From an uncultured Flavobacteriales bacterium (GTDB lineage Bacteria > Pseudomonadota > Alphaproteobacteria > UBA8366 > JADFVY01), in the NCBI GenBank assembly GCA_964347475.1, contig CAYFYY010000015.1, positions 877-64,876 on the forward strand: a stretch of DNA of 64,000 bases, given 5' to 3'. The notes beneath the pieces are model-generated. The model did no database searches, was not told where the DNA came from, and saw nothing but the letters and a program-made list of their open reading frames with translations. Of the stretch, positions 25,952-49,410 are shown in pieces. The position numbers and the translations under genes were made by a program. Position 1 is the stretch's first letter. The number at the start of each line of letters is the position of its first letter.

Positions 25952-26215
25952 TCAGTTGTCGCCGGGCCCCTGGTCGGGCGTGCCGTCATCGTCGCCGGCA
26001 TCCGCAGCGTCGTCGTCGTTGCCGCCGCCCTGATCCGGCGTGCCGTCATCGTCGGCGGCATCCGGAGCGTCGTCGGCGCCGTTCTTGGCGTACGCGGACT
26101 TCTCGACGAGCATACCGGCGTCCAGGGTCACCGGCGCCGCAACCGCGATCGCAAAGACACCGAGTGCCAGCGCTGCAATCACCGCCTTGAGTAAATCTGT
26201 CGTCCTGTTCGTCAT
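25952..26215 (-). CDS. Small secreted/anchored acidic repeat protein
   Basis: ATG at 26215 gives MTNRTTDLLKAVIAALALGVFAIAVAAP, then an Asp-rich tail with DAADDDGTPDQG twice. The underlying DNA is a tandem repeat. Confidence 0.45.
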   Translation of the reverse strand: MTNRTTDLLKAVIAALALGVFAIAVAAPVTLDAGMLVEKSAYAKNGADDAPDAADDDGTPDQGGGNDDDAADAGDDDGTPDQGPGDN

Positions 26216-28656: not shown

Positions 28657-28733
28657 GGCGGAGTAGCTCAGCTGGTTAGAGCAGCGGAATCATAATCCGC
28701 GTGTCGGGGGTTCGAGTCCCTCCTCCGCTACCA
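28657..28733 (+). tRNA. tRNA-Met (anticodon CAU), elongator-like, CCA encoded
   Basis: Hand-folded cloverleaf. Acceptor GGCGGAG/CTCCGCT, D-arm GCTC-AGCTGGTTA-GAGC, anticodon stem GCGGA/TCCGC with loop ATCATAA (CAT at 28691-28693), T-arm GGGGG-TTCGAGT-CCCTC, ending ACCA. An Ile2 (lysidine) identity cannot be excluded from sequence alone. Confidence 0.9.
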
Positions 28734-28741
28734 ACAAAAAG

Positions 28742-28780
28742 GCCCGTTATGTCAATGGCATAACGGGCTTTCTCTTTGTG
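28742..28780 (+). terminator. Rho-independent terminator after tRNA-Met
   Basis: GCCCGTTATG-tcaatgg-CATAACGGGC followed by TTTCTCTTTGTG. Confidence 0.6.
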
Positions 28781-29345
28781 TGAAAGACGGCATTTGGACG
28801 GTTTCATGTTGCATTTTGTTGCAATGCCTTTGCGTTGATATCCAACGATTTCCAATCGGGCGCGGCGACTCCGTGCGACAAGGATGCAACAAAAACGCTG
28901 CCGGCGCTGGCGACTCACTGGCGAAATTCGAATCGCCGTTGCATGTGGGCGAAGCGGCACGGGTTACGGAGTTTCCAGAAGTCCCGACCACGGGCTACAC
29001 TAGGGTACAAATGCGCCCGGGCGGATCACCGTTCGTCCAGACATTTCCGCTAAGCGACCTGCCGTTGCCAGCCGCGCACGGGGCTTGACGGCAGTGTACA
29101 TAGGACTCATGCTCTCCCGCTAATCGGAGAAGATGCGCCCGGATGGATCACCCGCCCGGGCGTTTCCATTGCGCGAACGCCGTTTGCCAGAGTCACCGAA
29201 TGTGATGTTTCGCCGCCGCCGGTGGCTTCGCGTCGCAGCTGGCCGCGGTGCCGATCAATGTTGCCGCAGTCTCAAAACGGATCGTCCCCGAAGTCGAAAT
29301 TCCGACTTCGGAGCCGGCCGGCATGCCTTTTGGAAGGGAAATATC

Positions 29346-29555
29346 ATGAAGCTTGCCGACGATGTGTTGTCGGGCGTCGCGGCCATCTCCGAATTCACAG
29401 GGGATCCGATGCGGCGGACGTATCACCTCCTCGAAACTGGCCAGTTGCCGGCGTTCAAATTGGGCGGTCGTTGGATTGCCCGGAAATCGAGCATCCTGAA
29501 GCACTTTGAAAAGCTTGAGGAAGGGCAGGACGCCCGCGGCGCCGGGGCGGACTGA
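29346..29555 (+). CDS. Small helix-turn-helix DNA-binding protein (AlpA/excisionase-like)
   Basis: ATG at 29346 behind GGAAGGGA. 69 aa: MKLADDVLSGVAAISEFTGDPMRRTYHLLETGQLPAFKLGGRWIARKSSILKHFEKLE. This is the typical excisionase/AlpA-type winged HTH pattern (...G.LPA.K.GGRW...). Confidence 0.6.
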   Translation: MKLADDVLSGVAAISEFTGDPMRRTYHLLETGQLPAFKLGGRWIARKSSILKHFEKLEEGQDARGAGAD

Positions 29556-29556
29556 G

Positions 29557-29793
29557 ATGGTGTATCGAACACCGCCGGCGGAGCGGAGTGCGCTCGAGAT
29601 CAGGCGCACCGATTTGGACCTGGACCTGACGCGTCTGGGCAATATCGTGCTGCGCCGGCACCGCGAAGTCCGGCAGTCGCGGGGCCGTATTAAGGTGCAG
29701 CGCGTGGAGGAGACACCGCTGGGCCAATGTCTGCCGTCGCCGCAATGGCCGCCGGCAGGTGAAGGGCCGTTGGCGGGGGAGTTGGGGGCATAA
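29557..29793 (+). CDS. Possible small ORF coupled to the HTH gene (unknown; may be a gene remnant)
   Basis: ATG sits 1 nt after the HTH stop (TGAGATG). 78 aa, and its stop lies 1 nt before the first CTGCTAC repeat. No motif recognised; composition is Arg/Pro-rich. Confidence 0.25.
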   Translation: MVYRTPPAERSALEIRRTDLDLDLTRLGNIVLRRHREVRQSRGRIKVQRVEETPLGQCLPSPQWPPAGEGPLAGELGA

Positions 29794-29794
29794 A

Positions 29795-30061
29795 CTGCTA
29801 CGCTGCTACCGAGCTGCTACGCCGTCTGTAGCAGCCAAGTCACGGAAACTCTTGGGAAATATGTGAACTGCTACGCTGCTACGCGTCAAAACACGACTCA
29901 CACGCGCGCGTGAGTCACTGCGTAGCAGTTGCCGAATCCGTAGCAGTTCATGGTTTTCTTAATAGAATCAGTGAACTGGCTGCTACAAAACCTGCTACAG
30001 GCTGCTACGCGCCGACGCTGGTCGGTGAATTGTCACTCTAAATCAGGGAGATAACTGCTAC
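29795..30061. repeat. Iteron-like array: 12 copies of CTGCTAC (9 direct, 3 inverted)
   Basis: CTGCTAC at 29795, 29803, 29814, 29868, 29876, 29980, 29992, 30002 and 30055. GTAGCAG at 29828, 29922 and 29940. Inverted repeat GACTCAC-N8-GTGAGTC at about 29895-29916. AT-rich stretch TTTTCTTAATAGAATCA at about 29954-29970. Confidence 0.85.
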
Positions 30062-30168
30062 GCCACGGCGAAACGAGGGATGAAGGGGATGCACACGAAC
30101 AGAAACAGGGCGGACGGGGTCAACTGGAATGTGCGGCTGTAACCTGATCAGGGCAGACCTCGAGGACG

Positions 30169-30385
30169 GCGCGGGTCCTTCCCGGCCCATGGTCGTTTGC
30201 GGGTACGGCGCGGCGCGGGATGTCGCCAGTGTAGGGGTTCGAGATTCCGGTTAAAGGTGCGGTTAAACCGGTTAAGTCGCGACGCCGAGCGCCGCGGAAC
30301 ACGGCGACGCACGGGTGGACCGCACGGCATCCCTACTAATCTCGCCGATAGCCTCGATGTTCTGTGTCCGTCACGCGAGGAGAAA
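30169..30385. repeat. Copy A of a roughly 220 bp imperfect direct repeat (partner at 42184-42409)
   Basis: Shared blocks: GCGCGGGTCCTTCCCGGCC, TTGCGGGTACGGCGCGG, TGTCGCCAGTGT, TTCGA.ATTCCGGTTAAAGG..CGGTTAAAC.GGTTAA, and CTCGATGTTCTGT. Three GGTTAA hexamers at 30249, 30261 and 30270. Confidence 0.75.
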
Positions 30386-30439
30386 TCTGACCCTGGTTGG
30401 AGAAATCACGGTGATCGCGCATGCGCTTTTGGTGTGGCG

Positions 30440-30964
30440 TTACACGCGCTCGCCGAGGCGTCGGCGACAGCCGGCGCAGAATGTGGCACGCTTGCGGTCG
30501 GTCTCGTCGAGGCAGTTGCTGAACCACATCACGCAGCGCGGCTCTGCGCAGTGCCCGAGGCCGAGGGTATGGCCGATCTCGTGGATGGCCTCCTTGAGGG
30601 CGCGTTGTCGGAAAACACGCGCATCCGCGCCAACGCCCAGGCGGCTGAGGGAGATGACCGCAGCCCGCCCCGACGGGTCCGCCATGCCGAACACGAAGTT
30701 CAGCCCGTGTGCATAAAGATCGGCATCGGTGACGGCGAGCACATGTCCGCCGGGCCGCCTGCGCGCCCGATCACGGGCCATGTGGAGTAAGGCATCAGCA
30801 CGGAACTGGTGGCGTTCGGAATCGTAGGCCTCGGACGGCAGTTCTTCACCGTCGCTCACTATCGCGTCGAACCCGGCGCTCGCGAGATCGCAGGCCAGCG
30901 CGTCGATATCACGACTGTCCGGATTGCCGACGGGAAACATTGCGATACGGAGCGCCATGGCCAT
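30440..30964 (-). CDS. Archaemetzincin-like zinc metallopeptidase (M54 family)
   Basis: ATG at 30964; 174 aa. HEIGHTLGLGHC metzincin/archaemetzincin signature plus a downstream Cys pair (FCAGC). Confidence 0.75.
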   Translation of the reverse strand: MAMALRIAMFPVGNPDSRDIDALACDLASAGFDAIVSDGEELPSEAYDSERHQFRADALLHMARDRARRRPGGHVLAVTDADLYAHGLNFVFGMADPSGRAAVISLSRLGVGADARVFRQRALKEAIHEIGHTLGLGHCAEPRCVMWFSNCLDETDRKRATFCAGCRRRLGERV

Positions 30965-31001
30965 CACCCCAAATTCTTGGGCCCGGCGATTACCGGCCGC
31001 T

Positions 31002-31712
31002 TCATGCCTGATCCCCGGGAACGCCGTATCGGCCGCGCAGGTTGACATACAGCACGGGGCACACGGACTGTCGGCGAATGCCGGCGTCGGACTTCTCAAA
31101 AACGGTCAGATCCTGTCGCGCGTCCGCGATGACCGGCGCAACGAGCTTGCCCCCGAGGGCGAGCTGTTCCAGCAGCGGCGGCGGTATCTCTGAACAGGCG
31201 GCCGTGATTGCGATCCGGTCGTAGGGCTGCAGCGCGGGATAGCCGAGGCCGCCGTCGGCCTGCACCAGCACGACATCCCGGTAGCCGGCCCTTTGAAGGT
31301 TGCCCCTGGCGTACGCGAAGGTCAAAGGGTCGATTTCGACGGCGACAACCAGGCCCGCATCGCCCACCACCTCGCGCGCGATCGCGGTACCGTAACCGGA
31401 GCCCAGGCCGACTTCGAGAAACCTGTGACCCTCGTCCAGCCCCAGGGGCTCGTAGAACAGCGGGTAGCTGTGCGGACAGGAGATGGTCGCCGAGCGGCCC
31501 GGCAGCGGCAGGGGGACCTCAAGATAAGCGTAATCGCGGTAGGGCTCGGGAATGAAGTCCTCGCGCGGCACCTTCAAAAGGGCCTGCTTGATGCGCTCGG
31601 ACTTAAGCAGGCCCTCCTCACTCAGCCGGGCGACCTTCTCCTGGCGTTCGCGCGCAAGAGCCGCCTTGCTCTTGCTCGGCTTCTTCGGCGGTGGGATGTG
31701 CCAGCCATACAT
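31002..31712 (-). CDS. pcm: Protein-L-isoaspartate O-methyltransferase
   Basis: 236 aa with the SAM motif LEVGLGSGYGTAIAREVVG, the SATISCPHSY region (ISxPH motif), and the C-terminal GGKLVAPV block. Confidence 0.85.
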   Translation of the reverse strand: MYGWHIPPPKKPSKSKAALARERQEKVARLSEEGLLKSERIKQALLKVPREDFIPEPYRDYAYLEVPLPLPGRSATISCPHSYPLFYEPLGLDEGHRFLEVGLGSGYGTAIAREVVGDAGLVVAVEIDPLTFAYARGNLQRAGYRDVVLVQADGGLGYPALQPYDRIAITAACSEIPPPLLEQLALGGKLVAPVIADARQDLTVFEKSDAGIRRQSVCPVLYVNLRGRYGVPGDQA

Positions 31713-31727
31713 GGTCTTCTCCGCGTC

Positions 31728-32249
31728 TTAACGCGACAGGCCCAGAATCTCGAAGATCGCACGCAGGAATGCCGGAATGTCGGCGGGCCGCCGCGACGTG
31801 ACGAGGTTACCGTCCACCACCACCTCACGATCGTGGTAGGTCGCGCCCGCCGCCTCCAGCTCCCGCCGCATGTCGCGATAGCAGGTGGCGCTGCGCCCCG
31901 CCAGCAGGCCGGTGGCGATCAGCACCTGCGGTCCATGGCAGATCGCGGCCAGGGGCTTGCCGGCCTCGAGAAAATGCCGCGCAATGGCCACTGCGTCGGG
32001 GTTATCGCGCAGGCTGGCCGGCGCCCTGCCGCCCGGCAACAGTAACAGGTCATAGTCCGCCGGCCGCACGGCGCCAAGTGCCAGCCCGGCGTTCGCCTTG
32101 TGGCGGTGCTTGCCGGTGATCACTCCCGTCCGCGGCGCGGCCACATCCACCGTCACGCCGTTCGCCTGCAGCTGGCGCAGCGGCTCGGCGAGTTCGCTGT
32201 CTTCAAAACCGTCAGCGCTGATGATCAGGGCGCGCATGTCGATCTGCAT
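31728..32249 (-). CDS. DJ-1/PfpI family protein (class I glutamine amidotransferase-like)
   Basis: MQIDMRALIISADGFEDSEL... with the nucleophile elbow AAICHGPQVL. An alternative start at 32237 is possible. Confidence 0.8.
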   Translation of the reverse strand: MQIDMRALIISADGFEDSELAEPLRQLQANGVTVDVAAPRTGVITGKHRHKANAGLALGAVRPADYDLLLLPGGRAPASLRDNPDAVAIARHFLEAGKPLAAICHGPQVLIATGLLAGRSATCYRDMRRELEAAGATYHDREVVVDGNLVTSRRPADIPAFLRAIFEILGLSR

Positions 32250-32551
32250 TGGAGAGCGGTCCGGTCCGCATGGGACAGCTTGGCAGTCGCGCATCCGGCG
32301 GGGCTGGACGGGGAACGGGACGAACTGGGCCTGCCCGAAAGACGTGGTATCCGGCCCAATTGAAGCGCGGCTGTCGACCGCGTCCTTTCGACTGGTTGGC
32401 TCTGCAAACAGCAGCATTCCCCCATTGCATGGTTTCCGTCTGCCGAACGCGATGCTGTCTCTTTTGATCCGCGTCGCGACATAGCAGGTTGTCGATGAAT
32501 TCTTGGTATTGTTGCGCGCCGGCGCCTACCTTCTCTTCCAGGAGGCGACCC

Positions 32552-32911
32552 ATGCCCGGGCCACAACGAGACCGCGCCGTTACGATCGAGGGCACCCTGG
32601 AACCCTGGGCGCCGGACATCAATGAGCCCCTGCTGTGGACGATCCACGAGGACGGCAGGGCCGGGCCGGAGGGCGTGCACCCGTTGCTGAACGGGGACCT
32701 TCTCATCGTTTATGACGATGCCAATACGCCGGTCTGGATCGGCATGGTCGAGCTCGAGTTCGACAGCGGTCTGCAGCCGGATCCCCTGGATCCAACGCGC
32801 ATGCGTCAGGCGGCCCGAGGGCGCTGGGTGCATGGTCTGCAGAAAGACGAGGATCCCGAGCTGTGGGCCCGCATGTTTTTCGAACGTCGCCGCGCCGTGG
32901 TGAAACGATGA
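32552..32911 (+). CDS. Hypothetical protein
   Basis: ATG at 32552 behind GGAGG; 119 aa. No motif recognised. Convergent with alr. Confidence 0.4.
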   Translation: MPGPQRDRAVTIEGTLEPWAPDINEPLLWTIHEDGRAGPEGVHPLLNGDLLIVYDDANTPVWIGMVELEFDSGLQPDPLDPTRMRQAARGRWVHGLQKDEDPELWARMFFERRRAVVKR

Positions 32912-32932
32912 TCCGGACATCCGATGGTTTCC

Positions 32933-34090
32933 TCAATCTTGAATCCCGCCGACCGCGACCCGATGCACGCGCTGCGCGATCGCCGTGACGATCTCGTAAT
33001 TGATCGTCCCCAGCTTGTTGGCCAGTTCGTCGGCCGTAATCTCCTCCTCGCCCTGCCGACCGATCAGCACCACCTCGTCGCCCGGCCGCATATGGCCGCG
33101 CAGCGTGGTCACGTCGACGAGGCTCTGGTCCATGGTGATGCGGCCGACCTGCGGGCATCGCCGGCCCCTTACCAGGACATCCATATCGTTGGAGAGCCGG
33201 CGCATCAGGCCATCGCCGTAGCCCACGGGAACGGTGGCGATCAGAGAGTCCCGTTCGGCATGGAACGCGTGCCCGTAGCTCAGACCCGTGCCGGCGGGGA
33301 CCTCTTTCAGGAAGGTGATCCGGCTCTTCCATTCGAGGACCGGCTGCAGCTCCCGGACAAGTGGATTCACGATCTCCGCGGAAGGCCTGAGCCCGTAAAT
33401 CGCAATGCCGGGCCGGACGGCGTCGAAATGCGATTCCGGGAGATCGAGGAGGGCCGCGCTGTTCGCCATATGTCGGAATTCGACCCCGTAACCGCTGGTC
33501 GCTTCGGCGACCTGCCGGAAGCGCTCGAGCTGCGCCAGCGAATAAGCCTTGTCGGTCTCGTCCGCCCGCGGGAAGTGGCTCATCAGTCCGCGCAAGCGCA
33601 ACGCCGGCAGGTTGCGGCAACGCTCGAGGAAGGCCGCGACGTCGTCGGGTCGGACGCCGATCCGCCCCATGCCCGTGTCCACCTTCAGGTGGACCGGGAC
33701 GGGCCGTTCCGCCGCTTCCGCAGCACGCGCCAGCGCCTCCGCCATCTCCAGCGTGCAGATGACGGGCTCGCAGTGATGGGCGACGATCGCCTCTGCGTGC
33801 TCCGGCAGCGTCGCGGAAAGGATGACGAAGGTGGCGTCGATGCCGGCTTCCAGCAGGGCGGCGGCCTCGAAGACATGCGCCACGCACAGCGTATCGTAGC
33901 CGAGCCGGACCAGCTGCCGGGCGATGATCTCGGCGCCGTGACCGTAGGCGTTTGCCTTTATCGCCGGCCACAACGGCCGTCCGCCGGCTGCCGCCCGCAG
34001 CAGGCGTATATTGTGCGCCAAGCGGCCGAGATGGATCTGCGCCTTGGTCAGATGCGAATCGCGGGGGCCGCTTGCCAGGGGTTCCTCCAT
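32933..34090 (-). CDS. alr: Alanine racemase (PLP-dependent)
   Basis: ATG at 34090; 385 aa. AIKANAYGHG PLP-lysine motif and the C-terminal YEIVTAI block. Confidence 0.8.
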   Translation of the reverse strand: MEEPLASGPRDSHLTKAQIHLGRLAHNIRLLRAAAGGRPLWPAIKANAYGHGAEIIARQLVRLGYDTLCVAHVFEAAALLEAGIDATFVILSATLPEHAEAIVAHHCEPVICTLEMAEALARAAEAAERPVPVHLKVDTGMGRIGVRPDDVAAFLERCRNLPALRLRGLMSHFPRADETDKAYSLAQLERFRQVAEATSGYGVEFRHMANSAALLDLPESHFDAVRPGIAIYGLRPSAEIVNPLVRELQPVLEWKSRITFLKEVPAGTGLSYGHAFHAERDSLIATVPVGYGDGLMRRLSNDMDVLVRGRRCPQVGRITMDQSLVDVTTLRGHMRPGDEVVLIGRQGEEEITADELANKLGTINYEIVTAIAQRVHRVAVGGIQD

Positions 34091-34094
34091 CGGC

Positions 34095-35192
34095 TCACGC
34101 CCCGGTCTCGCTGCGTGCCGCTTCCGGCATGGTCCGCTTCTCAACGTATTCCGAGGTCATCGCCGCGACGAGGGCGGCGTAATTCGGCGAGAATGCGATC
34201 TCGTCGCCCACATGAATGCTGCCCTTCGCTTGCGTGGCGTCCAGGATCAGGTAGCCGCTGGAGGCGCCCAGTATGGTCAGCCGCCTGTCGAGCGGGGTCA
34301 GGCCCCCGATATCCACGTCCTCGCGGCCGATATTGAGGAGAGCTCGATCGATGTCGCCTCGGTCCGCGAAGCGTGGCGTTGCGCCGAAGGCGTCTTCGCC
34401 GCGCTCTCCGACTGGAACCGACGGCTTGCGTTTCAGTTCCAGGACCTCCGCGTGGAGCAGGAACGCGTCTTGATACGTGCCGGCCCAGGGCCGCCGACGA
34501 ACGGTCTCGCGGCCGAGCAGGATCGCCTCGCCGATCCTCGCGTGGTTGACCCGTTTCGGCATCCGCCCGACGGCGATGAGCTCGAGCGCGCTGGAATTGC
34601 AGCCGGAGATCCATTCGAAATCGAGCCCCAGATCCTCCTCGACCTGCCGGGCGCAAGCGACCAGCCGGCTCATGTTCTCCTCCGACGGCACCACCCCGCC
34701 GAAGCAGGACAGATTCGTGCCCAGCCCGATGATCCGGATGCCCGGCAGCTTGACCGCGTCGGCCATGAAAGGGAGGAGCGCGTCGGGCCAGACGCCCTCG
34801 CGCAGGTCGCCGAGGTCGGTCATGACGATGACGTCGTGTGCTTTGCCGGTGCGCTCTGCCGCCGCCGAGAGACCGGACAGGATCGCAAGCTCGCTGTTGA
34901 GGCTGATCTCAACCGAACCGACGACCTCGTCCACGGCCGACAGCGGAGGCACCCGTATGAGCATCAAGCGCGCAGCCACCCCCGCCTGCCTGAGGCGTCG
35001 GATGTTCCTCATCCGCGAATCCCCGATCGATGAGACGCCGCCCCGCAGCATGGCAATCGCCACCTCCGGATGGCCGCAGACGCCTTTCGTTATGCCCGTC
35101 ACCTCGATCCCGTGCGCCCGGCACAGGTCGACAATCGTTTTCGCATTGTGTTCGATCTTGCCGAGATCGATGGTGAGATAGGGGCCAGCCAT
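34095..35192 (-). CDS. orr: Ornithine racemase-like PLP enzyme (alanine racemase N-domain, COG3457-type)
   Basis: ATG at 35192; 365 aa. GITKGVCGHPEVA (PLP Lys region) and TIM-barrel racemase-like blocks. Sits directly downstream of oraE, as in the described ornithine cluster. Confidence 0.65.
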   Translation of the reverse strand: MAGPYLTIDLGKIEHNAKTIVDLCRAHGIEVTGITKGVCGHPEVAIAMLRGGVSSIGDSRMRNIRRLRQAGVAARLMLIRVPPLSAVDEVVGSVEISLNSELAILSGLSAAAERTGKAHDVIVMTDLGDLREGVWPDALLPFMADAVKLPGIRIIGLGTNLSCFGGVVPSEENMSRLVACARQVEEDLGLDFEWISGCNSSALELIAVGRMPKRVNHARIGEAILLGRETVRRRPWAGTYQDAFLLHAEVLELKRKPSVPVGERGEDAFGATPRFADRGDIDRALLNIGREDVDIGGLTPLDRRLTILGASSGYLILDATQAKGSIHVGDEIAFSPNYAALVAAMTSEYVEKRTMPEAARSETGA

Positions 35193-35214
35193 CGCACTGC
35201 CCTTCCGGTGCGTC

Positions 35215-37410
35215 CTAACTCTGTTCCGATGCGCGCAGCTTTCGCACCAGGAAGCTGGCCACGTCCCGGCCGGTCGTACCGCGTCCGAACCCCGCGTCGA
35301 GGCCGCAGGCGCGTGCCAGGTCATCGGTCACTTGCGTACCACCGGCCACCAGCAAAAGCCGCGGGCGCAAGTTGCGTTCCGTGGCCAATTCATGGAGACG
35401 ACGCATGTTCGCCGTATGGACATCGGCATGGGTGATGATCGTAGAAATAAGCACGGCCCGGGCGCCGGTCTCTGTCGCGGCATCGAGAATTCTCTCCAGC
35501 GGTACGGACGTGCCAAGGTAATGGCAATGGAAGCCGTATTTCTCGATCCCGCCATGCTTGATATCGAGGATTTCGCGCAGGCCCACCGAGTGCTCGTCCT
35601 CGCCGACCGTCGCCGCGACGACGTGGACGCCGCGGGGACGCACCCAGGCCTCGATCTCCGCATCCGGCAGTGGTTGCTCGCGCTCTGCCAGCGAAAGGTC
35701 GTCGATCCTGAGGGCGACTTCGAGAACGCCCTTGATCTCGAAAACGCTGCCCTCCGCCGGGTGCATGATCCGCCGGCTGATAATCTCGGGGTCTCGGAGT
35801 CCCATATGTCGGGCCATTTCAAGCGCCGCGGCCTCGCCCACGCGCGGGCTCTCGGGTACGAACAGGGTGACGCACACAACACCGTCGCCGTGTCGCTCGA
35901 CCTCGGGCCGCAGCAGGCCCTCCGCCCGTTCCGCCAGTGGCGTCTCGAGCCGCCTGTCCACGTTGTCGTCGGGATCCAGCTCGTCGATATAGCGGATCTT
36001 CGAGGGATCGCACAGCGTGCAGCCGCCGTAGTCGTCGCAGGGTTTTCCCGTATCCGTCGCGTAGCTGTTGTCCCCGAAATGGCTGCATACCGGAGCGCCG
36101 TAGCCCGCTTTGCGCGGGACCGTGCTTCCCGCGCCGCTTCCGCCATACTCATCGCGCACGATACCGTCGGCCTTGCGCTCCGGATAGTAACCGGAATCGA
36201 CGAACTGACCGGCCTCGACCGCCGCGTAATAGCCGCCGTTTTCGATAATCTCTTCGAGGAAAAGAACGGCGCGCTCCTTCAGCTCCCGCACTGTGCGGGG
36301 CAACTCGCCGTCTTGGCGGATTTCGATCTGCTCCATCAGCCCGTCGACGCCCATCAGGGTCTGTCGGGCCGCGTTTACCCCCGCCACGTTGTTGTAGTGC
36401 CAGGGAATGTTGCGCCCTTCGTCCGGCGTGATCGTGCTCTGGATATCGGCCGAGGTCAGGCGCGAGATAAGCGTATCGAGCACATGCGTGACGGTGGCCT
36501 CCATCGTGTCGGACTCGACGTAGCGCGTGTTCTGTTGCGCCCGGAACCGGTAGCCCTTGAAGATGTCGCGAAGCGCCACCGCGTAGGGCAGGTCGAGGCG
36601 TAATTTCGGGGCCGGTGGCGCGGTCGGCGGCACGGTAGACAGGCCGATCTGGCCGGGCGCCATGCCCGCCTTCCGCGAGTACGCGGTGTTGATGCCGTGC
36701 TGCACGAACAGCTCGGGCGTGACTTTCCAGGCTTGCTTCGCCGTGGCGTTGGCGTTGTGCGCGCCGTCGATCTGCAAGAGGCCGCCATCCGCCATGATCT
36801 TCTTGGCCTCCGCCGCATCGACGAAGGAGCGGTGCATGTTGATGTTGCGATAGAGCACATTGTACTGCGGGTCCTGGTGGGCCCCGTTGACGCCTTCCTC
36901 GACGAAGAGGACGGCCATTTCCGGCCCGGCGAGGCCGCTGACATAGGAGTGGAAATTGATCGGCCGCCCCACCTCCTCCTCGATCGCGTCCAGCGCCTTG
37001 CGGCTGGCGCGAAGCTGCTTGCGCGTGATCGGAATGCCGCCGACACCTTCCGGCGTACCCTCGATCAGACCGTCGATATGGGACTGGCCGGTGGTCCGGA
37101 TGACCATGATGTGGTCGGCGCCATGCCAGGCCGCCATGCGCATTCGGCGCAGATCGTCCTCGAACCGCCCCGATGCGATCTCGGTGGTGATCACGAAGTC
37201 GCATTGCGGGTCGATATCGCCGACCGCATGCGCCGAGGGGAGCGGGATGGAGCGGTCGAGAGTCTCGGAGGTGTCCTTGTAGACGAAGGGGCCGATTTGC
37301 TGGTCCTCGACTTTGTGGCGCCAGGTCCATCCCTTGCGCTTCGGGCGATATTTGCCGAGGTCCTTCAGGACCTCCCGCAGGTCGAGTTTCCGGTCCGCCG
37401 CGAGCTTCAT
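35215..37410 (-). CDS. oraE: D-ornithine 4,5-aminomutase, large (E/beta) subunit, B12- and PLP-dependent
   Basis: 731 aa. The C-terminal B12-binding domain has the DxHxxG motif (EDEHSVG). Size and partner small subunit match OraE/OraS. Confidence 0.8.
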   Translation of the reverse strand: MKLAADRKLDLREVLKDLGKYRPKRKGWTWRHKVEDQQIGPFVYKDTSETLDRSIPLPSAHAVGDIDPQCDFVITTEIASGRFEDDLRRMRMAAWHGADHIMVIRTTGQSHIDGLIEGTPEGVGGIPITRKQLRASRKALDAIEEEVGRPINFHSYVSGLAGPEMAVLFVEEGVNGAHQDPQYNVLYRNINMHRSFVDAAEAKKIMADGGLLQIDGAHNANATAKQAWKVTPELFVQHGINTAYSRKAGMAPGQIGLSTVPPTAPPAPKLRLDLPYAVALRDIFKGYRFRAQQNTRYVESDTMEATVTHVLDTLISRLTSADIQSTITPDEGRNIPWHYNNVAGVNAARQTLMGVDGLMEQIEIRQDGELPRTVRELKERAVLFLEEIIENGGYYAAVEAGQFVDSGYYPERKADGIVRDEYGGSGAGSTVPRKAGYGAPVCSHFGDNSYATDTGKPCDDYGGCTLCDPSKIRYIDELDPDDNVDRRLETPLAERAEGLLRPEVERHGDGVVCVTLFVPESPRVGEAAALEMARHMGLRDPEIISRRIMHPAEGSVFEIKGVLEVALRIDDLSLAEREQPLPDAEIEAWVRPRGVHVVAATVGEDEHSVGLREILDIKHGGIEKYGFHCHYLGTSVPLERILDAATETGARAVLISTIITHADVHTANMRRLHELATERNLRPRLLLVAGGTQVTDDLARACGLDAGFGRGTTGRDVASFLVRKLRASEQS

Positions 37411-37760
37411 CGGACGAGGTCCTCCCAGAAGCGTCCCGCCAGCAACGCGTCTCCCGCTTCGCGCGGGGCGATCCGCCTGGCCTTCGCCAGTTCGAGGACC
37501 AGGCGTCCCGCGCCATGGCCGAGAAGATTGCGCTCCTGCATCATGGCCACGAGGTTGCCGGCCTCGATGCTGGAAAAGCCCATCCGCAGCAGCACCGAGC
37601 GCTCGATGGATGGCGTCGTACGGGTCCGGGCCTCCGCGACCAGCGGTTCGACGATCTTTTCGACGAGTTGCCAGAAGTAGTTGTGAAGATCCTCGTCCGA
37701 CATGTCCTTGAGCCGGGCACGGCGCTTCGCGAAATCGTCCGGTCGTTCAACGCATGTCAT
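37407..37760 (-). CDS. oraS: D-ornithine 4,5-aminomutase, small (S/alpha) subunit
   Basis: 117 aa, overlapping the oraE start by 4 nt. Size and position match OraS. Confidence 0.75.
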   Translation of the reverse strand: MTCVERPDDFAKRRARLKDMSDEDLHNYFWQLVEKIVEPLVAEARTRTTPSIERSVLLRMGFSSIEAGNLVAMMQERNLLGHGAGRLVLELAKARRIAPREAGDALLAGRFWEDLVR

Positions 37761-39159
37761 CGATCACCTTCCGCACATAGGATTGGTCGGACCGGGTCTC
37801 GTCGGCCAGGAACGCGAAATCGGATTCGGTCAATTGTTCGCCTTCCGCCAGCGAGGCGATGGCATTGCGCAGATAGGAGCGTCGGACGTGATCGAGATCC
37901 AGGTCGACCACGGCGATCTGCGACGGATGCTCGGGAATGACGATGGCCCGGCCGGGCCTGTTGTTTCTCGGATCGCCGCGCACGACCGCAATGCCCAGCC
38001 GCTTGGCGAGGTTCAGCTGCGCGATCGGATGCTTGCCGGCACCGGTGTACTCGGTCTCCTGGACGACGAGGATGCGGTCCTCGTCCATCATGCGCGCGAT
38101 GGCGAACGCGGCGGCGAGCGAGGTGTTGCCGGCCGCGCCCCGGTCCAGCCCCTCGAGTTCCGCCAGCACCTGCGTCATGTAGAACACCTCGCCCTGGGTC
38201 ACGGTGACGAAGCGGTCGATATAGCGCAGCGGGCGGGCGGCGTTTCGCGGCACGTCGGCCCGGTCCGGCCAGGTCGTAAACGGCACCGAGAAGCCGGTAT
38301 GGCCGGTGGTGAAGGACTTCCTGTTGAAGTCATGGTCGGAGGCCATGTGGAGCCCGGCGAGATCGACGCTGACCGCGACGATTTCGGTTTCGGCGGCGCC
38401 GGCTTTCCGCAATCCGCGGGCCGTGCCGGTGACATTGCCGCCGCCGGCATGGGTGACTGCGACGACGTCGGGAAAGCGCCCGGTCCGCTCGCGCACCTGC
38501 TGGGCCAACTCATACCCGAGCGTCTCGATGCCGAGGATCGAGTATGGCGTATACAGCGATGCGTTGAAGTATCCGGTTTCCTCGAGCACTCTCAGAAACA
38601 CGTAGAACAGCTCCGGCCCGACCGAGAGCCGGATGACTTCGGCGCCATAGGCCTCGCAGGCCCGGGTCTTCTCCGCGATCTCGGGCTGGGCGATGCCCTC
38701 GCTGTCGAAAGCCTCCTGCACGACGATGCAGCGCAGGCCCGCCTTGGCGGCCTGCGATGCGACGGCCGCGCCGTAATTGCCGCTGGTCGCGGCGGCGACG
38801 CCGTCGTAGCCGCGCTTCCTGGCCTCGTGGACCGAGAGCGAGGCCCGCCGGTCCTTGAACGAGCCCGACGGGTTCCTGGCCTCGTCCTTGACGAAGATGC
38901 GGGCGCCCTTGCCGGGGTCCGCAACGCAGCGAACGACCTCGGTGATGTTCTCGAGTTCGACGAGCGGCGTCTCGCCGACCGCCGTGCGGCTCTGCACCGC
39001 CCGCGCCGTATCGATGTCGTAGCCGGTGTCGGCCAGCAGGCGCTCGTAATCGAAGGCCAGCGCGCCCGTCGCATATTGCTGGTAATCGAGGCCGATGGCA
39101 TCGCGCACGATCTCGCCTCGCCGGGCCATGATTTCCGCGTAGCCGGGCCTCGGTTTCAT
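37747..39159 (-). CDS. ortB: 2-amino-4-ketopentanoate thiolase, beta subunit (PLP, Trp-synthase-beta fold)
   Basis: 470 aa with the PLP lysine motif NPSGSFKDRRAS and a GGGN glycine loop. Overlaps oraS and ortA. Confidence 0.75.
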   Translation of the reverse strand: MKPRPGYAEIMARRGEIVRDAIGLDYQQYATGALAFDYERLLADTGYDIDTARAVQSRTAVGETPLVELENITEVVRCVADPGKGARIFVKDEARNPSGSFKDRRASLSVHEARKRGYDGVAAATSGNYGAAVASQAAKAGLRCIVVQEAFDSEGIAQPEIAEKTRACEAYGAEVIRLSVGPELFYVFLRVLEETGYFNASLYTPYSILGIETLGYELAQQVRERTGRFPDVVAVTHAGGGNVTGTARGLRKAGAAETEIVAVSVDLAGLHMASDHDFNRKSFTTGHTGFSVPFTTWPDRADVPRNAARPLRYIDRFVTVTQGEVFYMTQVLAELEGLDRGAAGNTSLAAAFAIARMMDEDRILVVQETEYTGAGKHPIAQLNLAKRLGIAVVRGDPRNNRPGRAIVIPEHPSQIAVVDLDLDHVRRSYLRNAIASLAEGEQLTESDFAFLADETRSDQSYVRKVIDDMR

Positions 39160-39470
39160 CGGATGCGTCCCTTGTCCCGCAGCATGGCGCGGACCTCGCC
39201 GCCGATGCCTGTGAGCTCCGCGATCGGCGGGCCGAAGCCATGGGTGTAGGCGGGATTGACAGCGCTGAGCGTGCCGCGAAGGCGGCGTCCGGCCGGGGTC
39301 ACGATCGTAACGTCCTCGCCGAGCACCGCGGGCTCGGCGAGAAATCCCTTCGCGCGCATCTCCAGAGGCAGCTGCCGGGTGTCGTCTGGAACCTGCGGCG
39401 CGCGGCCTCCGGCGGGCAGCACGATACCGTGGATCTCGACCCAGGTCCCCTTGGCGACCGGCTCAGCCAT
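39156..39470 (-). CDS. ortA: 2-amino-4-ketopentanoate thiolase, alpha subunit
   Basis: ATG at 39470; 104 aa. A small protein between ord and ortB, overlapping both. Assignment rests on size and synteny. Confidence 0.65.
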   Translation of the reverse strand: MAEPVAKGTWVEIHGIVLPAGGRAPQVPDDTRQLPLEMRAKGFLAEPAVLGEDVTIVTPAGRRLRGTLSAVNPAYTHGFGPPIAELTGIGGEVRAMLRDKGRIR

Positions 39471-40530
39471 GTCGCCGCTCCCGGAGCCGCTCGTGGACAA
39501 GGCCGCGGGCATCGCCCAGCATCGCCGCCGGGACCGGCAGATCCGCCATCCCGTGCAGGCCGGGATCCGCATTCAGGACTCGCGGGATCATGTTCACGGC
39601 GAGGGCCGCGGTGGCCTCTCCGCCCGGGATTTCCGGGCGTCCCGAAAGGCGCAGGTTCGGGGTTCCCGTGATCTCGATGCTGTCGCCGGTCTCGATACCC
39701 TCGAGTCCCGGATGGATCTGCTGCGGATGGATCAGCGTGATGACGGGCTGGCCGTTGCGGTAGGCGACCGCGGTGTGCAGGCAGCCCGCGACCTGGCCCG
39801 GCTCGACCGTAACGACGGGCGTCTCGCGCCGGACCTGCGTGACGATGGGCTCGCGGCTCTCCTCGATGCGGTCGATCTCCCAGCCGATGGCATCCGCGAT
39901 CATGCGAATCGAGTCCGGGAAGCCGATATGGCCGACGACGCGGCCGTGCTCGAGCCCCTCCCGGAACGCGCGGGGCGTCAGGCCGACGCCCTGGCTCGCC
40001 AGGACCGACGGGCCGTAGGGCGAGAGGTCGTTGCTGCGCTTTGCGGTAATGGACTCGATGGCGGCGCACACGCCGGTGAGGGCGATGACGAGAAGGTCGA
40101 ACACGAAACCGGGATTGACGCCGGTTCCGAGGGCGGACACGCCCTTGGCAACGGCCAGGCGATCGATCTCCGCGGCGATCTCCGGGCCGTGATGCGCGGG
40201 ATAGGCCATCTCTTCGGCGATCGAGATCACATGGACGCCACGATCCAGCAGCGTGACGATCTCATCCCTGGCATCGACCAGCCGCGAGCAGGTCGCATGT
40301 ATCGCGACCTCGGGCCGTGCCGCATCGGTCACGCCGGCCAGGTCGTTGGCGATCGCCAGGCCAAGATCGCGCTCCAGTCCGATTGCCCGGCCGAGATCCG
40401 TGCCGGCGCGCGCCGCCCGCCGGCCGTATGCGCCGACGAGGTCGAGCCCCTTCTTGCACAGAACGAGGCGGGCTATCCTGCTCCCCATCTGGCCCGTCCC
40501 GACCACCAGGATCCGGATCGGATCGCGCAT
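39463..40530 (-). CDS. ord: 2,4-diaminopentanoate dehydrogenase (DapB-like NAD(P) oxidoreductase)
   Basis: 355 aa with the N-terminal Rossmann motif IRILVVGTGQMGSRI. First gene of the ord-ortA-ortB-oraS-oraE-orr string. Confidence 0.7.
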   Translation of the reverse strand: MRDPIRILVVGTGQMGSRIARLVLCKKGLDLVGAYGRRAARAGTDLGRAIGLERDLGLAIANDLAGVTDAARPEVAIHATCSRLVDARDEIVTLLDRGVHVISIAEEMAYPAHHGPEIAAEIDRLAVAKGVSALGTGVNPGFVFDLLVIALTGVCAAIESITAKRSNDLSPYGPSVLASQGVGLTPRAFREGLEHGRVVGHIGFPDSIRMIADAIGWEIDRIEESREPIVTQVRRETPVVTVEPGQVAGCLHTAVAYRNGQPVITLIHPQQIHPGLEGIETGDSIEITGTPNLRLSGRPEIPGGEATAALAVNMIPRVLNADPGLHGMADLPVPAAMLGDARGLVHERLRERRHG

Positions 40531-40596
40531 GCGTGAGCCTTTCTGTCGCTTCCAGCAGGGCGGCGCCGGCCGGCCGCCGCAATGCGTCGCCGCGAG

Positions 40597-41085
40597 TCAC
40601 CCGATGGGAATGCGCCGTCCGGCTGTCGGCTTGCCGGGCGCGGCCTTGGGCAGGACGATCGTCAGCGTCCCCCGGCGATAGGTGGCCTTGATCCCGGCCT
40701 CGGCGATCGCCGGTCCGATGGCGATCGCCCGCTCGAAGCGGCCGAACTCGCGCTCCCGCAACGCATGGTGCTGGTTCTTGGCCTCCGGCGGGATCTCATT
40801 GTCGCCGCAGATGCTGAGGATGCCGCCGCCGAAGGTGACGTCGATTTCGTCTGGCGCCACGCCCGGCAGCTCGACCTGGACGGTGACCGCGTCCGCGTCT
40901 TCGGCGACGTCCATCTGCGGCGACAGGTCGATGCCGGACACCGGGCGCGCCGTCGGCGAGCCGAGGCCGCGCCAGTAGTCCTCGACCGTCTCGGTCATCG
41001 CCTGGCGCAGGTCTTCCAGGGGGCGCGGCACGTGCCGCGGCGCCCATGCCCTCCAGTACCAAATCGGGGGTCCTCGATCAGCCAT
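40597..41085 (-). CDS. Small heat-shock protein (Hsp20/alpha-crystallin)
   Basis: 162 aa from the ATG at 41085. Alpha-crystallin core: DVAEDADAVTVQVELPGVAPDEIDVTF...REREFGRFERAIAI...ATYRRGTLTIVLPK. Confidence 0.8.
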   Translation of the reverse strand: MADRGPPIWYWRAWAPRHVPRPLEDLRQAMTETVEDYWRGLGSPTARPVSGIDLSPQMDVAEDADAVTVQVELPGVAPDEIDVTFGGGILSICGDNEIPPEAKNQHHALREREFGRFERAIAIGPAIAEAGIKATYRRGTLTIVLPKAAPGKPTAGRRIPIG

Positions 41086-41298
41086 GACGAACCTCGTCGA
41101 AGCCGGAGGATCAAATCGCCATATGGTACGACCGGGCCGCCTGCCGGGGCATTGACCCATGTCAACGGCCGGGCCCGCTTTGATCTGCGTCATGGGCGCG
41201 GGCCGCGCCCTGTGGTCCAATGCCGGGTCCGAAGGACTGACCCAGTCCCGATCCGTTCCCGAGGGGCGGCCACGAGCGACCACGGGGCCGAGCACGAG

Positions 41299-41544
41299 AT
41301 GGCTCACACGCACGAGCGCCTGATCGCGCAGTTCCCGCGCTACGAGCGGCAGATCCGCGAGCTCGCCGCATCGGATGCGGAATTCGACGAGCTCGCGGCC
41401 GAGTACGAGACTCTGCGCAGCGAGATCCACGACCTGGAAGCGTCCGGCGACGTCGGGCCCGATTACACGGATCTCTGCGATCGCCGCGACGATCTGCAGG
41501 AAACGCTGGTCATCATGATGCAGGAAGCCGAGAGCGCCGCCTGA
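41299..41544 (+). CDS. DUF465 (YdcH-like) small coiled-coil protein
   Basis: 81 aa. IRELAASDAEFDELAAEYETLRSEIHDLE... is the typical DUF465 pattern. Confidence 0.6.
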   Translation: MAHTHERLIAQFPRYERQIRELAASDAEFDELAAEYETLRSEIHDLEASGDVGPDYTDLCDRRDDLQETLVIMMQEAESAA

Positions 41545-42183
41545 CGCGGGGCTCTCGCGGGGATCATGGCCGGGCTGGCGGGGGCACAGGCCTGGCGGGT
41601 GATCTTTAACGCCTACCCCGGGGCCCGGCAGATAGCGCCGTTGAGCTCTGCACCGAGGCGAGACGGCGGCGCGCCAAGGCGCACGCCTTGTCGACCGCGG
41701 TGGACGGCAAACTCGCCGGCTTCGCCGATGTCGGCACCTGGGCCGAGGTGGCCGTCGAAGACGAAAGCAAGATGGTCGCGCGCGGCAAGCAAGGCAGAGC
41801 CGCAACCAACGCTACGAAGGTCGGCCCCATGACCGAGGACGCAGGACAGCGCTACCTGCGCCTGCCCATGCTGCACGCCGGTGGGTGCGCTTGGCATTCA
41901 TCGCTGGGCATTCGCCGGCTAGCAGCATGGGGTTCGCGATTGTCCGCGACCATTTGCTCGATCTGGGGGAACGGATGTTCCCTTGGCGTTGTCGCCGAAA
42001 TCCAGAAGCATTCGGCAATTTTGGGGCTCCGGGGCAGGCAGCCTGATTCGTTCGCCGCCGTTGGGCATGACAGTGGCTGGTGTACGGGCATATCACGGCC
42101 TCGCCGAATACCCGCCGGCGATCCGCGGAGAAGCGCGCCGCGAAATCCGGGATGCCCGGGCCAGGATCTACGACCATTCGCAA

Positions 42184-42409
42184 GCGCGGGTCCTTCCCGG
42201 CCGGGCGCCAATTGCGGGTACGGCGCGGTGCGGGTTGTCGCCAGTGTCGGTGTTCGAAATTCCGGTTAAAGGCCCGGTTAAACAGGTTAAATCAAGAGGT
42301 TAAGGTCGACGCCGGGAGTCGCAGATCATGGCGGTGTGCCGGGTCGGAGCGCCACCGATTCGATTTCGCCGACATTCTCGATGTTCTGTTTCCGCATTTC
42401 GACGAGAAA
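42184..42409. repeat. Copy B of the roughly 220 bp imperfect direct repeat (partner at 30169-30385)
   Basis: Same conserved blocks as copy A. Four GGTTAA hexamers at 42264, 42276, 42285 and 42298. Confidence 0.75.
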
Positions 42410-42713
42410 GCGCAGCTTGGCTGTAAGAACAGCCCGCCATGCATGATCTATCAAAGACGGAACTTGAACCGAGCAGTCGCAGGTTCAAATCGGGGGCCCG
42501 CAACCACCTATGCCGAACACGTTTGAGGTGGGGCCGACGGTCCGCTCTAGAGCCCGCTACGTACATGAGCGATCCTCGCTCCTAACCGCAGCTTTTAGCG
42601 AGGAGCCGTCGATTCGCGATCCCGGCCATTACCCGTAACGTCGCTTGTAACAGGCTCTGCATATGCCGCTTTTGGGCGCGATCATGATAGATCGGTAACC
42701 GGGTCGGACGACA

Positions 42714-43664
42714 TCAGCCCACGGCCGCAGCGAACACCCGCATGAAATTCCCGCCGCTGATCTTTTCGATGTCGGCCCGTGCCATGCCGCGCGCCCGCAG
42801 CGCATCGGGGATCACGTAAAAGGCGGAATAATCGTCCCAGACCGGCGCGCGGACGGCATCCATATCGGTGCCGATGCCCACATGATCGACACCGACCGCG
42901 TCGGTGAGCCGGACGATATTGTCGATGTAGTCGTCGAAATCATCGACGGCGAGCCGCGTCGCCCAGGCACCGATCATGCCGCCGGTCGAGGCGATCAGCC
43001 GCGCATGGTCTTCATCGATGCAGCGCGGGTGCCGGTCGCCCAGAATGCTGTGCGACAGGATGATCGGTCGATCGGTCGCACGAACGACGCCCTTCACCGT
43101 CTCGAAGGTGGCGTGCGCCACGTCGACGAGGATGCCGAGCCTGGCGCATTCCCCGACGACGTCGCGACCGAACGCCTTCAAGCCGCCATGGCGCGGCAGT
43201 TCGGTCTGGATATCGCCGAGCTCGTTGATCCGGTAGTGGACGAGCTGCATCACACGCACGCCACGGCCATGGAAGTGTGCCACGCGATCGACCCGTCCCT
43301 CGAGGCAGTCGAGACCCTCGATCGCCGCAACGATCGCGCCGCCCGTCTCCCGCAACCCCTCGATATCGGCAACCGTCGCCGCCGGCCACGTGCCGGCGCG
43401 TCGGCATGTCTCCCACAACGCATCGAGATCGCTCTCGGCGCCGTCGAACAGCTCGCCCGGTTGGGGCTCGCGCAACAATCGCAATCCCCGGTCCGTCATG
43501 CCGATGACGCTGCGGTCGCCGATCACCGCCGCAATGCATGCGGTCATGCCGCCCCGGCGCATCTCCTCGATCCGCGCCACGCCGCATGCCGGATCCTCGA
43601 AGAACCGCCCGAGATGGCAGTGACTGTCGATGGCGTAAGCGACGCCGCCCCGGCCGGACGTCAT
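42714..43664 (-). CDS. Membrane (renal-type) dipeptidase family protein, peptidase M19
   Basis: 316 aa. Metal-ligand-like motifs IDSHCHL, VDVAHAT and ILSHS, with M19-like spacing. Confidence 0.7.
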   Translation of the reverse strand: MTSGRGGVAYAIDSHCHLGRFFEDPACGVARIEEMRRGGMTACIAAVIGDRSVIGMTDRGLRLLREPQPGELFDGAESDLDALWETCRRAGTWPAATVADIEGLRETGGAIVAAIEGLDCLEGRVDRVAHFHGRGVRVMQLVHYRINELGDIQTELPRHGGLKAFGRDVVGECARLGILVDVAHATFETVKGVVRATDRPIILSHSILGDRHPRCIDEDHARLIASTGGMIGAWATRLAVDDFDDYIDNIVRLTDAVGVDHVGIGTDMDAVRAPVWDDYSAFYVIPDALRARGMARADIEKISGGNFMRVFAAAVG

Positions 43665-43700
43665 CGCAGCTCCTCCATTATCCGCCCCATATTGGCCGCG

Positions 43701-44573
43701 TCACGGCGTTGCCGCCGACTTGACCGCAAGCGCCGCGGCCCAGTCCGCAATGATCGCGCTGAGCCGGGTCAGGTCCGCCTGCAGGCTTGCGAACCCGGGC
43801 GTCGGTTCGACCCGCGCCTCGTCGAGGTAGAGCGCCCGGTTGATCTCGATCTGCAGGCTGTGGATTCCACCTGCCGGATCCGCATGGCGGCGCAGGACGC
43901 CGCCGCCGGCATACGGCTCGTTCACCGACACCGAGTAGCCGAGCGCGCGCAGGCTTTGGGCGACCAGCGCGGTCAGGCCAGAATCGCAGGCGGTGCCATG
44001 CAGATCACCGATCACGAAATCAGGCCGCCGCACGCCCGGACCATCCGGCGTGTTGGCGTTGCCGACGGATTTCATCGAGTGCCAGTCGACATGACAAACC
44101 GCGCCGAACATGCCGCGCAGGTCCTTCAATCGCGATGCCAGTGCCTCGTGGTAGGGCCGATGATAGCGCGCGACCCTCGCCGTGACCTCGCCATAGCTGA
44201 GCAGCCGGTCGTAGATACGGTGCTCGGGAACCACATCTCGGCGGATGAGGCCGATCCCGCGCCGGCTCTTGTCGCTCTGCCGAAAGGCGTCAGCCGGCGC
44301 ATCCGCGACAAGTGCCGGATCGACATCGTCCTCATCGCGGTTCGGGTCGATATAGCAACGGGGGAACAGGGCCTTGAGCACCGTCACCCCGCTGGCCGGC
44401 GCGCCCGCCAGCAACCGGTCCACATACGCGTCCTCGCCGCGCCGCAAGATCTCCAGCGGCAACGCCGATCCGAAATCCTCGGGGTAATCACGCCCGCTGT
44501 GCGGCAGGTCGAACAACACCGCCCTCGCCGAAGCAGACGGTCGCACGATCTCGAGAACACCGGGGACGATCAC
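43701..44573 (-). CDS. N-formylglutamate amidohydrolase family protein (FGase), copy 1
   Basis: 290 aa. LFDLPHSGRDYPEDF and HVDWHSM motifs. Confidence 0.7.
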   Translation of the reverse strand: MIVPGVLEIVRPSASARAVLFDLPHSGRDYPEDFGSALPLEILRRGEDAYVDRLLAGAPASGVTVLKALFPRCYIDPNRDEDDVDPALVADAPADAFRQSDKSRRGIGLIRRDVVPEHRIYDRLLSYGEVTARVARYHRPYHEALASRLKDLRGMFGAVCHVDWHSMKSVGNANTPDGPGVRRPDFVIGDLHGTACDSGLTALVAQSLRALGYSVSVNEPYAGGGVLRRHADPAGGIHSLQIEINRALYLDEARVEPTPGFASLQADLTRLSAIIADWAAALAVKSAATP

Positions 44574-45433: not shown

Positions 45434-45436
45434 GTG

Positions 45437-49336: not shown

Positions 49337-49410
49337 CCCGCTCCAACCGCCTCAAGAGACGCGGGTGGCGGGGCGGCGTTGCCGCCACCCCGCTCCCAAT
49401 CGTCGAGCCA

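Follow-up and report, generated by a model that had tools for sequence, protein, structure and literature searches.

What are two long, diverged direct repeats doing at either end of a 12-kb block of genes downstream of a tRNA-Met gene? The question arises from a stretch of 64,000 nucleotides from an uncultured bacterium (NCBI GenBank assembly GCA_964347475.1, contig CAYFYY010000015.1, positions 877 to 64,876), which was analyzed at its full length and is designated here as the window. The repeat, designated U, is present as two diverged copies of one non-coding DNA-level module, U_A and U_B. U_A is located between a phage-type remnant and the 12-kb block, and both copies lie at boundaries of non-syntenic blocks. 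They are tentatively interpreted, with less than even confidence, as decayed recombination-junction (att-like) modules with protein-binding arrays, which would mark the ends of a horizontally acquired 12-kb cassette. The repeat, its non-coding and non-RNA character, its location at cassette boundaries and the breaks in synteny are shown by the data, whereas a former service of U as a recombination substrate and the identity of its binding proteins are inferred.

The two copies of U

The pair was characterized with MAFFT, a repeat finder and nhmmer, and consists of the following features:

30169-30400, plus strand: repeat copy U_A, with three GGTTAA hexamers at 30249, 30261 and 30270
42184-42425, plus strand: repeat copy U_B, with four GGTTAA hexamers at 42264, 42276, 42285 and 42298

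U_A and U_B have the same orientation in the MAFFT alignment and constitute a direct repeat, and the repeat search of the window recovers the pair as families D2 and D6. The BLASTN comparison of U_A with U_B gives an E-value of 1e-30, and a two-sequence nhmmer profile of U matches only these two copies (E = 1e-73 and 1e-79); no third copy is present in the 64-kb window. The original prediction had placed imperfect direct repeats at 30169-30385 and 42184-42409. They are real, and their 3' ends extend slightly further, to 30400 and 42425. The five exact identical blocks listed in that prediction are all present in the MAFFT alignment.

The overall identity of the two copies is 74%, and it is unevenly distributed. 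It is 85% over the first 115 nt (30169-30283), 56% over about 54 nt at 30284-30340, and 76% over 45 nt at 30341-30385. Relative to U_A, 12 nt are inserted in U_B and 3 nt are missing, and the longest exact blocks common to both copies do not exceed 19 nt. Seven of the nine GGTTAA hexamers in the window are inside the two copies, all on the plus strand. Their start-to-start spacing is 12 and 9 nt in both copies, with a further 13 nt in U_B, which bears out the three to four hexamers per copy, 9-13 bp apart, that had been claimed. The fourth hexamer of U_B sits in the 12-nt insertion, and the number of hexamers thus differs by an indel. The hexamer segment is locally AT-rich, with a GC content of 0.43-0.50 in a genome of 65% GC. 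A metagenome contig of the same species (99.6% identity; one other strain) contains both copies in the identical arrangement.

U does not behave as a gene. One plus-strand frame is open through both copies, and it would need three or four rare TTA codons. The substitutions between U_A and U_B are distributed over the three codon positions as 22, 15 and 22, indicating no codon periodicity. A phmmer search of the open frame against 1.84 billion representative proteins returned a single match, P0361, which is a protein of six 70-aa tandem repeats whose weak partial matches were summed, an artefact. No matches to U were found in Pfam or PHROG. With no codon-position bias and no genuine protein homolog, U was rejected as a protein-coding gene or pseudogene.

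U was also rejected as a known or structured RNA. Rfam 15 gave no match over U even at E <= 5, and tRNA-Met alone matches in the Rfam scan at the gathering threshold. U_A and U_B fold less stably than dinucleotide shuffles (z = +1.99 and +0.87). RNAalifold predicts 57 pairs with four compensatory changes, against a null of 5.1 +/- 1.9 obtained by re-placing the same number of substitutions at random positions, a comparison of low power with two sequences. The original prediction had offered a family of regulatory or small-RNA repeats as its alternative, and these results give the small-RNA form no backing.

In an explanation that appears improbable, the two copies of U are paralogs of a host module with a cis-regulatory or protein-binding role, or of an unstructured small-RNA gene. 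A response regulator or a nucleoid-associated protein would then use the GGTTAA array as its operator and might, for example, control or silence the neighboring stress genes. The strongly conserved blocks, the phasing of the hexamers on one strand and the AT-richness of their segment would fit such a module, as would the stress-related genes nearby (hsp20, DJ-1 and PIMT). Against it, each copy lies between convergent genes, so that neither is upstream of any gene and 3' gene ends are found on both sides; a spacer of 39 bp (30401-30439) separates U_A from the archaemetzincin stop codon. Neither copy has a sigma-70-like promoter or an intrinsic terminator within it or next to it. The Rfam, folding and compensation results argue against this explanation as well. 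Furthermore, a JGI contig, L178, carries the same hsp20-ornithine core and lacks U. The CtrA box is TTAA-N7-TTAA, and the alphaproteobacterial LexA box is GTTC-N7-GTTC. Both were rejected for the GGTTAA array, as its spacings (N8 and N5; checked by eye) misfit.

Relatives of U were searched for in several collections and, for the source genome, within the 64-kb window. No homolog was found by blastn in PLSDB plasmids or in INPHARED phages (50,697 phage records). The exact 19-base pattern CCGGTTAAAGGNNCGGTTAAA has 14 matches in GTDB representative genomes, none of which aligns to U beyond the pattern, and the three matches that were inspected are 12-nt tandem repeats. Tandem repeats of this kind, GG(C/G)CCGGTTAAA, are present in unrelated genomes (L006 7270-7330, L005 1420-1480 and L013 6040-6070) and are not homologous to U; they account for the chance matches of the hexamer pattern. 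In JGI metagenomes, the overly permissive pattern GGTTAA-N6-GGTTAA-N3-GGTTAA yielded no locus homologous to U among the 119 listed. Exact matching of four U sequence blocks in IMG/VR gave no homologous match. About 100 kb from related genomes (L018-L025, L178) contains no copy of U by BLASTN or nhmmer --max. A literature search for GGTTAA direct repeats returned nothing relevant. Exact-protein look-ups with the helix-turn-helix (HTH) protein described below, an 81-aa protein, PIMT and a gene of the MFS family gave matches only from the same species or from short contigs.

These searches bear on another explanation, in which U is a low-copy dispersed intergenic repeat of the lineage, either REP/BIME/RIME-like or a small non-autonomous element, that landed independently in two gene-poor spacers with no causal link to the cassette. 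A spacer between convergent genes is the classic location of REP-type repeats, and another REP-like family, with CCGCAAC palindromes, is found nearby at 42.49 and 54.0-54.27 kb. This explanation is considered unlikely. The 64 kb contain just two copies and the DNA of the relatives contains none, and both copies coincide with cassette boundaries. No terminal inverted repeats, target-site duplication or stable palindromic hairpin was found for U. A miniature inverted-repeat transposable element was rejected on the first two of these features. U is analogous to REP/BIME/RIME repeats in being non-coding, imperfectly copied and placed between convergent genes, and differs from them in its two copies only, in having no palindromic hairpin and in folding more weakly than shuffles.

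Junctions at tRNA-Met and at an 18-nt repeat

The surroundings of the two copies were compared with CP070634.1, the closest complete genome (a Rhodospirillales metagenome-assembled genome of 3.86 Mb), and with the JGI contig Ga0259480_10000399. The left part of the locus includes the following features:

28657-28733, plus strand: tRNA-Met (CAU), detected by ARAGORN and by Rfam with 65.1 bits
28739-28771, plus strand: terminator-like hairpin GGCCCGTTATG...CATAACGGGC, different from the hairpin of the relatives
29346-29555, plus strand: 69-aa phage-type HTH protein of the xis/AlpA-like fold class, at most a candidate excisionase
29557-29793, plus strand: 78-aa open reading frame (ORF), translationally adjacent to the HTH gene, with no Pfam, PHROG or NCBIfam match
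29789-30069, both strands: iteron-like array of at least ten CTGCTAC(G) motifs, recovered by the repeat search

The genes for a histidine kinase and a response regulator and the tRNA-Met gene are syntenic with both relatives at 78-79% identity. The homology stops at 28746 for CP070634.1 and at 28745 for Ga0259480_10000399, about 12 nt past the 3' end of the tRNA. Beyond this point, both relatives carry a hemerythrin/ThiS/AFOR cluster that is absent from the window. They also share a GC-rich terminator hairpin, GCCCCGCGC...GCGCGGGGC, unlike that of the window, and the hairpin at 28739-28771 is therefore part of the non-syntenic DNA. The tRNA-Met and the terminator after it that the original prediction named are both present. 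Integration into the 3' end of a tRNA gene would be expected to leave just such a loss of synteny, and the comparison supports the view that the DNA downstream is a non-syntenic mosaic.

Two further observations were made around the tRNA gene. The Logan contig L027 (run ERR2564002) stops inside tRNA-Met, at window position 28702. A 60-nt unit is tandemly duplicated with 85% identity at 25955-26074, either ahead of the histidine kinase gene or in its start region, and the CP070634 locus also aligns twice to this duplication.

The DNA between tRNA-Met and U_A had been proposed to be a decayed element without an integrase, and its content is in line with this proposal. The 69-aa HTH protein matches phrog_18541, a family without known function, with an E-value of 1.6e-8, and its score for HTH_17 (21.7 bits) is below the cut-off of 27. 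Homologs with 35-43% identity are encoded on alphaproteobacterial plasmids, and one homolog is found among the early genes of an Azospirillum prophage with an integrase and a terminase. The CTGCTAC(G) array comes right after the HTH gene and the ORF of 78 aa. Its motifs surround an AT-rich stretch and a perfect palindrome with 11-bp arms, GACTCACACGC/GCGCGTGAGTC (29895-29916), and the array resembles an ori or operator left over from a phage-type element. No integrase was found in 28.7-30.2 kb. U_A comes immediately after this remnant. Strains seem to differ by an indel in the iteron array, but the difference comes from a run of N at a scaffold gap and is no real variation.

The position of U_A directly after the CTGCTAC array and the phage HTH gene raises the alternative that U is a replication, partition or packaging site of the phage-type element, such as a short-iteron ori, a centromere-like site or pac/cos, with U_B as the remnant of a second related element. 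Phased short direct repeats of variable copy number together with an IHF site would be typical of such sites, and the hexamers of U resemble an iteron-type ori or partition site in their phasing. This alternative appears quite improbable. No Rep, Par or terminase gene is located near either copy, the DNA left of U_B is unlike the DNA left of U_A and contains no phage-like ORFs, and neither the phage records nor the IMG/VR matching yielded anything related.

On the other side of the 12-kb block, a second junction is located beside U_B:

42491-42508, plus strand: left copy of the 18-nt exact direct repeat CGGGGGCCCGCAACCACC, 66 bp right of U_B
54136-54153, plus strand: right copy of CGGGGGCCCGCAACCACC, an exact match

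The 18-nt repeats bracket an 11.6-kb block (42509-54135) with genes for an M19 dipeptidase, FGase, an ABC (peptide) transporter, MlrC and AstE. The homology to CP070634 begins precisely at 42491. In CP070634, the two outer flanks of this cassette are contiguous via a single 18-nt copy (L023 10952-11312): L023 10952-11174 matches window 42491-42713 in reverse complement, and L023 11157-11312 matches window 53998-54153 in the same way. Such a join would be the junction expected of a circular form of the 11.6-kb cassette. In relatives at about 80% identity, the M19 gene is convergent with AstE; M19 is thus next to AstE there, so that the window has a circular permutation of the cassette. Identity to CP070634 is 91% in the M19-ABC part and 78% in the flank of histidine kinase, response regulator and tRNA, a difference that suggests a recent transfer of the M19-ABC cassette. 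The Logan contig L002 (run ERR2564002) ends exactly at window position 42491, which is the 18-nt repeat. As this repeat seems short for breaking an assembly by itself, the contig end hints at strain-level heterogeneity at the junction. Taken together, the 18-nt repeat, the joined flanks in CP070634, the permuted cassette and the contig end at 42491 are good evidence of cassettes moving or recombining at short repeats. U_B, 66 bp from this junction, is therefore placed at a cassette boundary.

The IHF consensus WATCAANNNNTTR has two matches in the window, where 0.24 are expected, and three of 100 shuffles reach two. Both matches fall in junction elements. One is AATCAAGAGGTTA in U_B, at 42290-42302, and the other is at 54043-54055 on the minus strand.

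The element at 54000-54270 is rich in CCGCAAC motifs (about six copies) and contains the palindrome GGTTGCGGGGGCCCGCAACC and a terminator-like hairpin, AAAGCCCC...GGGGCTTTT, at about 54085-54120. A diverged second copy of the 18-nt repeat and its right flank is located at 54187-54225, and 42479-42491 is an inverted copy of 54025-54037. The element could be a member of a REP-like family, an att-like site or a small RNA. Inside the cassette, a 142-nt direct repeat with 72% identity (45824-45965 and 46840-46981) corresponds to two adjacent paralogous ABC ATPase genes (ABC_tran and oligo_HPY) and is ordinary.

Possible origin of the repeat pair and comparison with known systems

If U is a decayed recombination junction, the present arrangement might have arisen by a single crossover. 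A circular DNA with the cassette and one copy of the module would have recombined with a resident copy at the margin of a phage-type element that had integrated at tRNA-Met before. One crossover between a pair of such sites would duplicate the module as direct repeats around the inserted DNA. The three or four phased (C/G)NGGTTAA sites may have been bound by accessory proteins that bend DNA or set directionality; candidates are the 69-aa HTH protein encoded nearby and, given the consensus site in U_B, IHF. The conserved left and right blocks of U could be former recombinase contact or crossover regions, and the recombinase gene would since have been lost. With 74% identity and exact blocks of 19 nt or less, the two copies are poor substrates for a homologous loop-out, and the cassette is therefore effectively fixed.

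Several observations weigh against an att-like origin and keep its standing tentative. The similarity of about 230 bp far exceeds the usual att duplications of 15-60 bp, and it dips halfway through the unit before recovering, at odds with a clean pattern of arm, core and flank. The IHF match is in U_B and not in U_A. No recombinase or integrase gene was found among the ORFs of 28.7-30.4, 41.5-42.7 and 54-64 kb or among the cassette genes. A tRNA-derived att core in U was rejected as well. Searches of the window for the 25-nt and 17-nt 3' ends of the tRNA, with up to three mismatches tolerated, recovered only the tRNA itself. The best local alignments of the tRNA and its flank score 20 with U_A and 19 with U_B (shuffle p of about 0.09 and 0.13), and of 434 slices of 290 nt taken arbitrarily from the window, 10 score 21 in the same comparison. 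Thus, the 20-nt resemblance to the variable loop and T-arm noticed in the original prediction is not above chance, and its proposal of tRNA-derived att duplications does not hold. The 12-kb block, for which a composition profile had been proposed as a check, is indistinguishable from the rest of the window in GC content and in GC content at third codon positions (GC3); any acquisition is therefore old, or the donor was compositionally similar. Finally, no third member of the U family was found in the plasmid, phage, GTDB-pattern, metagenome (noise-limited) or viral scans, and no intact element reveals the role of the module.

Tandem or mosaic genomic islands that carry attL/attR direct repeats at tRNA genes offer points of comparison. 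Examples are the islands of Klebsiella at Asn tDNAs (PMC4891358), the phage-related sequences of Sinorhizobium meliloti at tRNA hot spots (PMC11476347) and tandem SGI1 arrays (PMC2297512). The present locus is similar to such tRNA islands in that its non-syntenic DNA begins where a tRNA gene ends, a phage-type remnant adjoins the tRNA, and successive cassettes are parted by directly repeated junction sequences. The neighboring cassette, with its 18-bp direct repeat and a joined form in a relative, adds to the likeness. The differences are the lack of an integrase and of a tRNA-derived core in the 230-bp repeats, the much greater length and divergence (74%) of these repeats compared with usual att repeats, and the lack of a distal copy of the tRNA 3' end within the window.

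The arms of lambda-type attP sites contain arrays of directly repeated Int-arm and Xis sites together with IHF sites. U would be analogous in its length of 230-240 bp and in its three or four direct short motifs spaced at about one helical turn, and the IHF-consensus match in one copy and the small HTH gene nearby could be counted in the same way. Unlike lambda-type attP, U contains no identified core of inverted recombinase sites and is accompanied by no recombinase gene, and its protein-binding role is putative. Both copies look like whole sites rather than complementary halves.

Integron attC sites and clusters of attC sites lacking integron integrases (CALIN) offer another partial analogy, as U is directly oriented and appears to separate gene cassettes. 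Several GGTTAA sites can be read as GTTRRRY (GTTAAAC, GTTAAGT and GTTAAAT). Nevertheless, U was rejected as an attC site, since it has no inverse core, no attC-type hairpin and no IntI, and the blocks here are 12-kb multi-operon units rather than single promoterless ORFs. A further reading, regarded as highly improbable, is that U is a new kind of boundary site of multi-gene cassettes, a protein-binding module of about 230 bp with a GGTTAA array that would be recognized in trans by a recombinase encoded elsewhere. If this were true, integrase-less metabolic and stress cassettes would be stacked and exchanged at a tRNA-linked hot spot, by a logic like that of attC sites with unrelated sequence and structure, and the circularly permuted 18-bp-repeat cassette would be a second module of the same system.

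If U is instead a decayed junction of the att-like kind, the locus records a patchwork assembly at one tRNA gene in an uncultured soil or sediment Rhodospirillales lineage. The parts would be a protein-repair trio, a B12-dependent ornithine degradation pathway with hsp20, and a peptide-uptake and degradation cassette, and U would be a marker for finding further such cassettes. The main value of these observations is for annotation and for understanding cassette turnover in this lineage, and nothing indicates a new biochemical mechanism. U is a real and unexplained repeat in an informative mosaic, and nothing found requires a new kind of system.

Gene content of the block between the copies

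The 12-kb block between U_A and U_B contains the following features:

30440-30958, minus strand: archaemetzincin (NCBIfam, 164.8 bits)
31002-31712, minus strand: PIMT (PCMT in Pfam; gene calls in L017)
31728-32249, minus strand: DJ-1/PfpI (Pfam; gene calls in L017)
32552-41085, minus strand: two genes of the Ala-racemase fold, OraE, OraS, OrtB, OrtA, 2,4-diaminopentanoate dehydrogenase and hsp20 (Pfam)
within 32552-41085, plus strand: ORF119, conserved in L178
41299-41544, plus strand: 81-aa coiled-coil protein, with a homolog of 80% nucleotide identity in L178
41545-42183, no strand assigned: 639 bp with no convincing gene, no phage-like ORFs and no detectable similarity to the DNA left of U_A

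Archaemetzincin, PIMT and DJ-1/PfpI (30440-32249) constitute a protein-repair trio. The gene content claimed in the original prediction stands for archaemetzincin, PCMT, DJ-1, the racemases, OraE/OraS, OrtA/OrtB, the dehydrogenase and HSP20. It does not stand for DUF465, as the 81-aa protein scores 14.2 bits against PF04325 (DUF465), below the cut-off of 25.

L178, whose OraE is 84% identical, contains hsp20, the diaminopentanoate dehydrogenase, OrtA/B, OraS/E, the racemases and ORF119 at 75.6% nucleotide identity, and lacks archaemetzincin (M54), PIMT and DJ-1. This partial match, with the hsp20-ornithine core and neither U nor the M54, PIMT and DJ-1 genes, counts in favor of an acquired or rearranged region in the window. 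Because the core is found there without U, U is not intrinsic to the ornithine cassette. The 81-aa gene is inverted relative to hsp20 in L178, with a dodecin gene between them. The 120 OraE matches listed include no protein from CP070634, another sign of an acquired or rearranged region. Across several phyla, OraE in these matches keeps an identity of about 80%, as would fit frequent transfer.

Outside the block, the region at 11000-14000 has a GC content of 0.555-0.595, compared with the window mean of 0.65, and encodes polysaccharide and glycosyltransferase functions. It is 70-74% identical to CP070634 and rearranged, and may be another variable or acquired segment.

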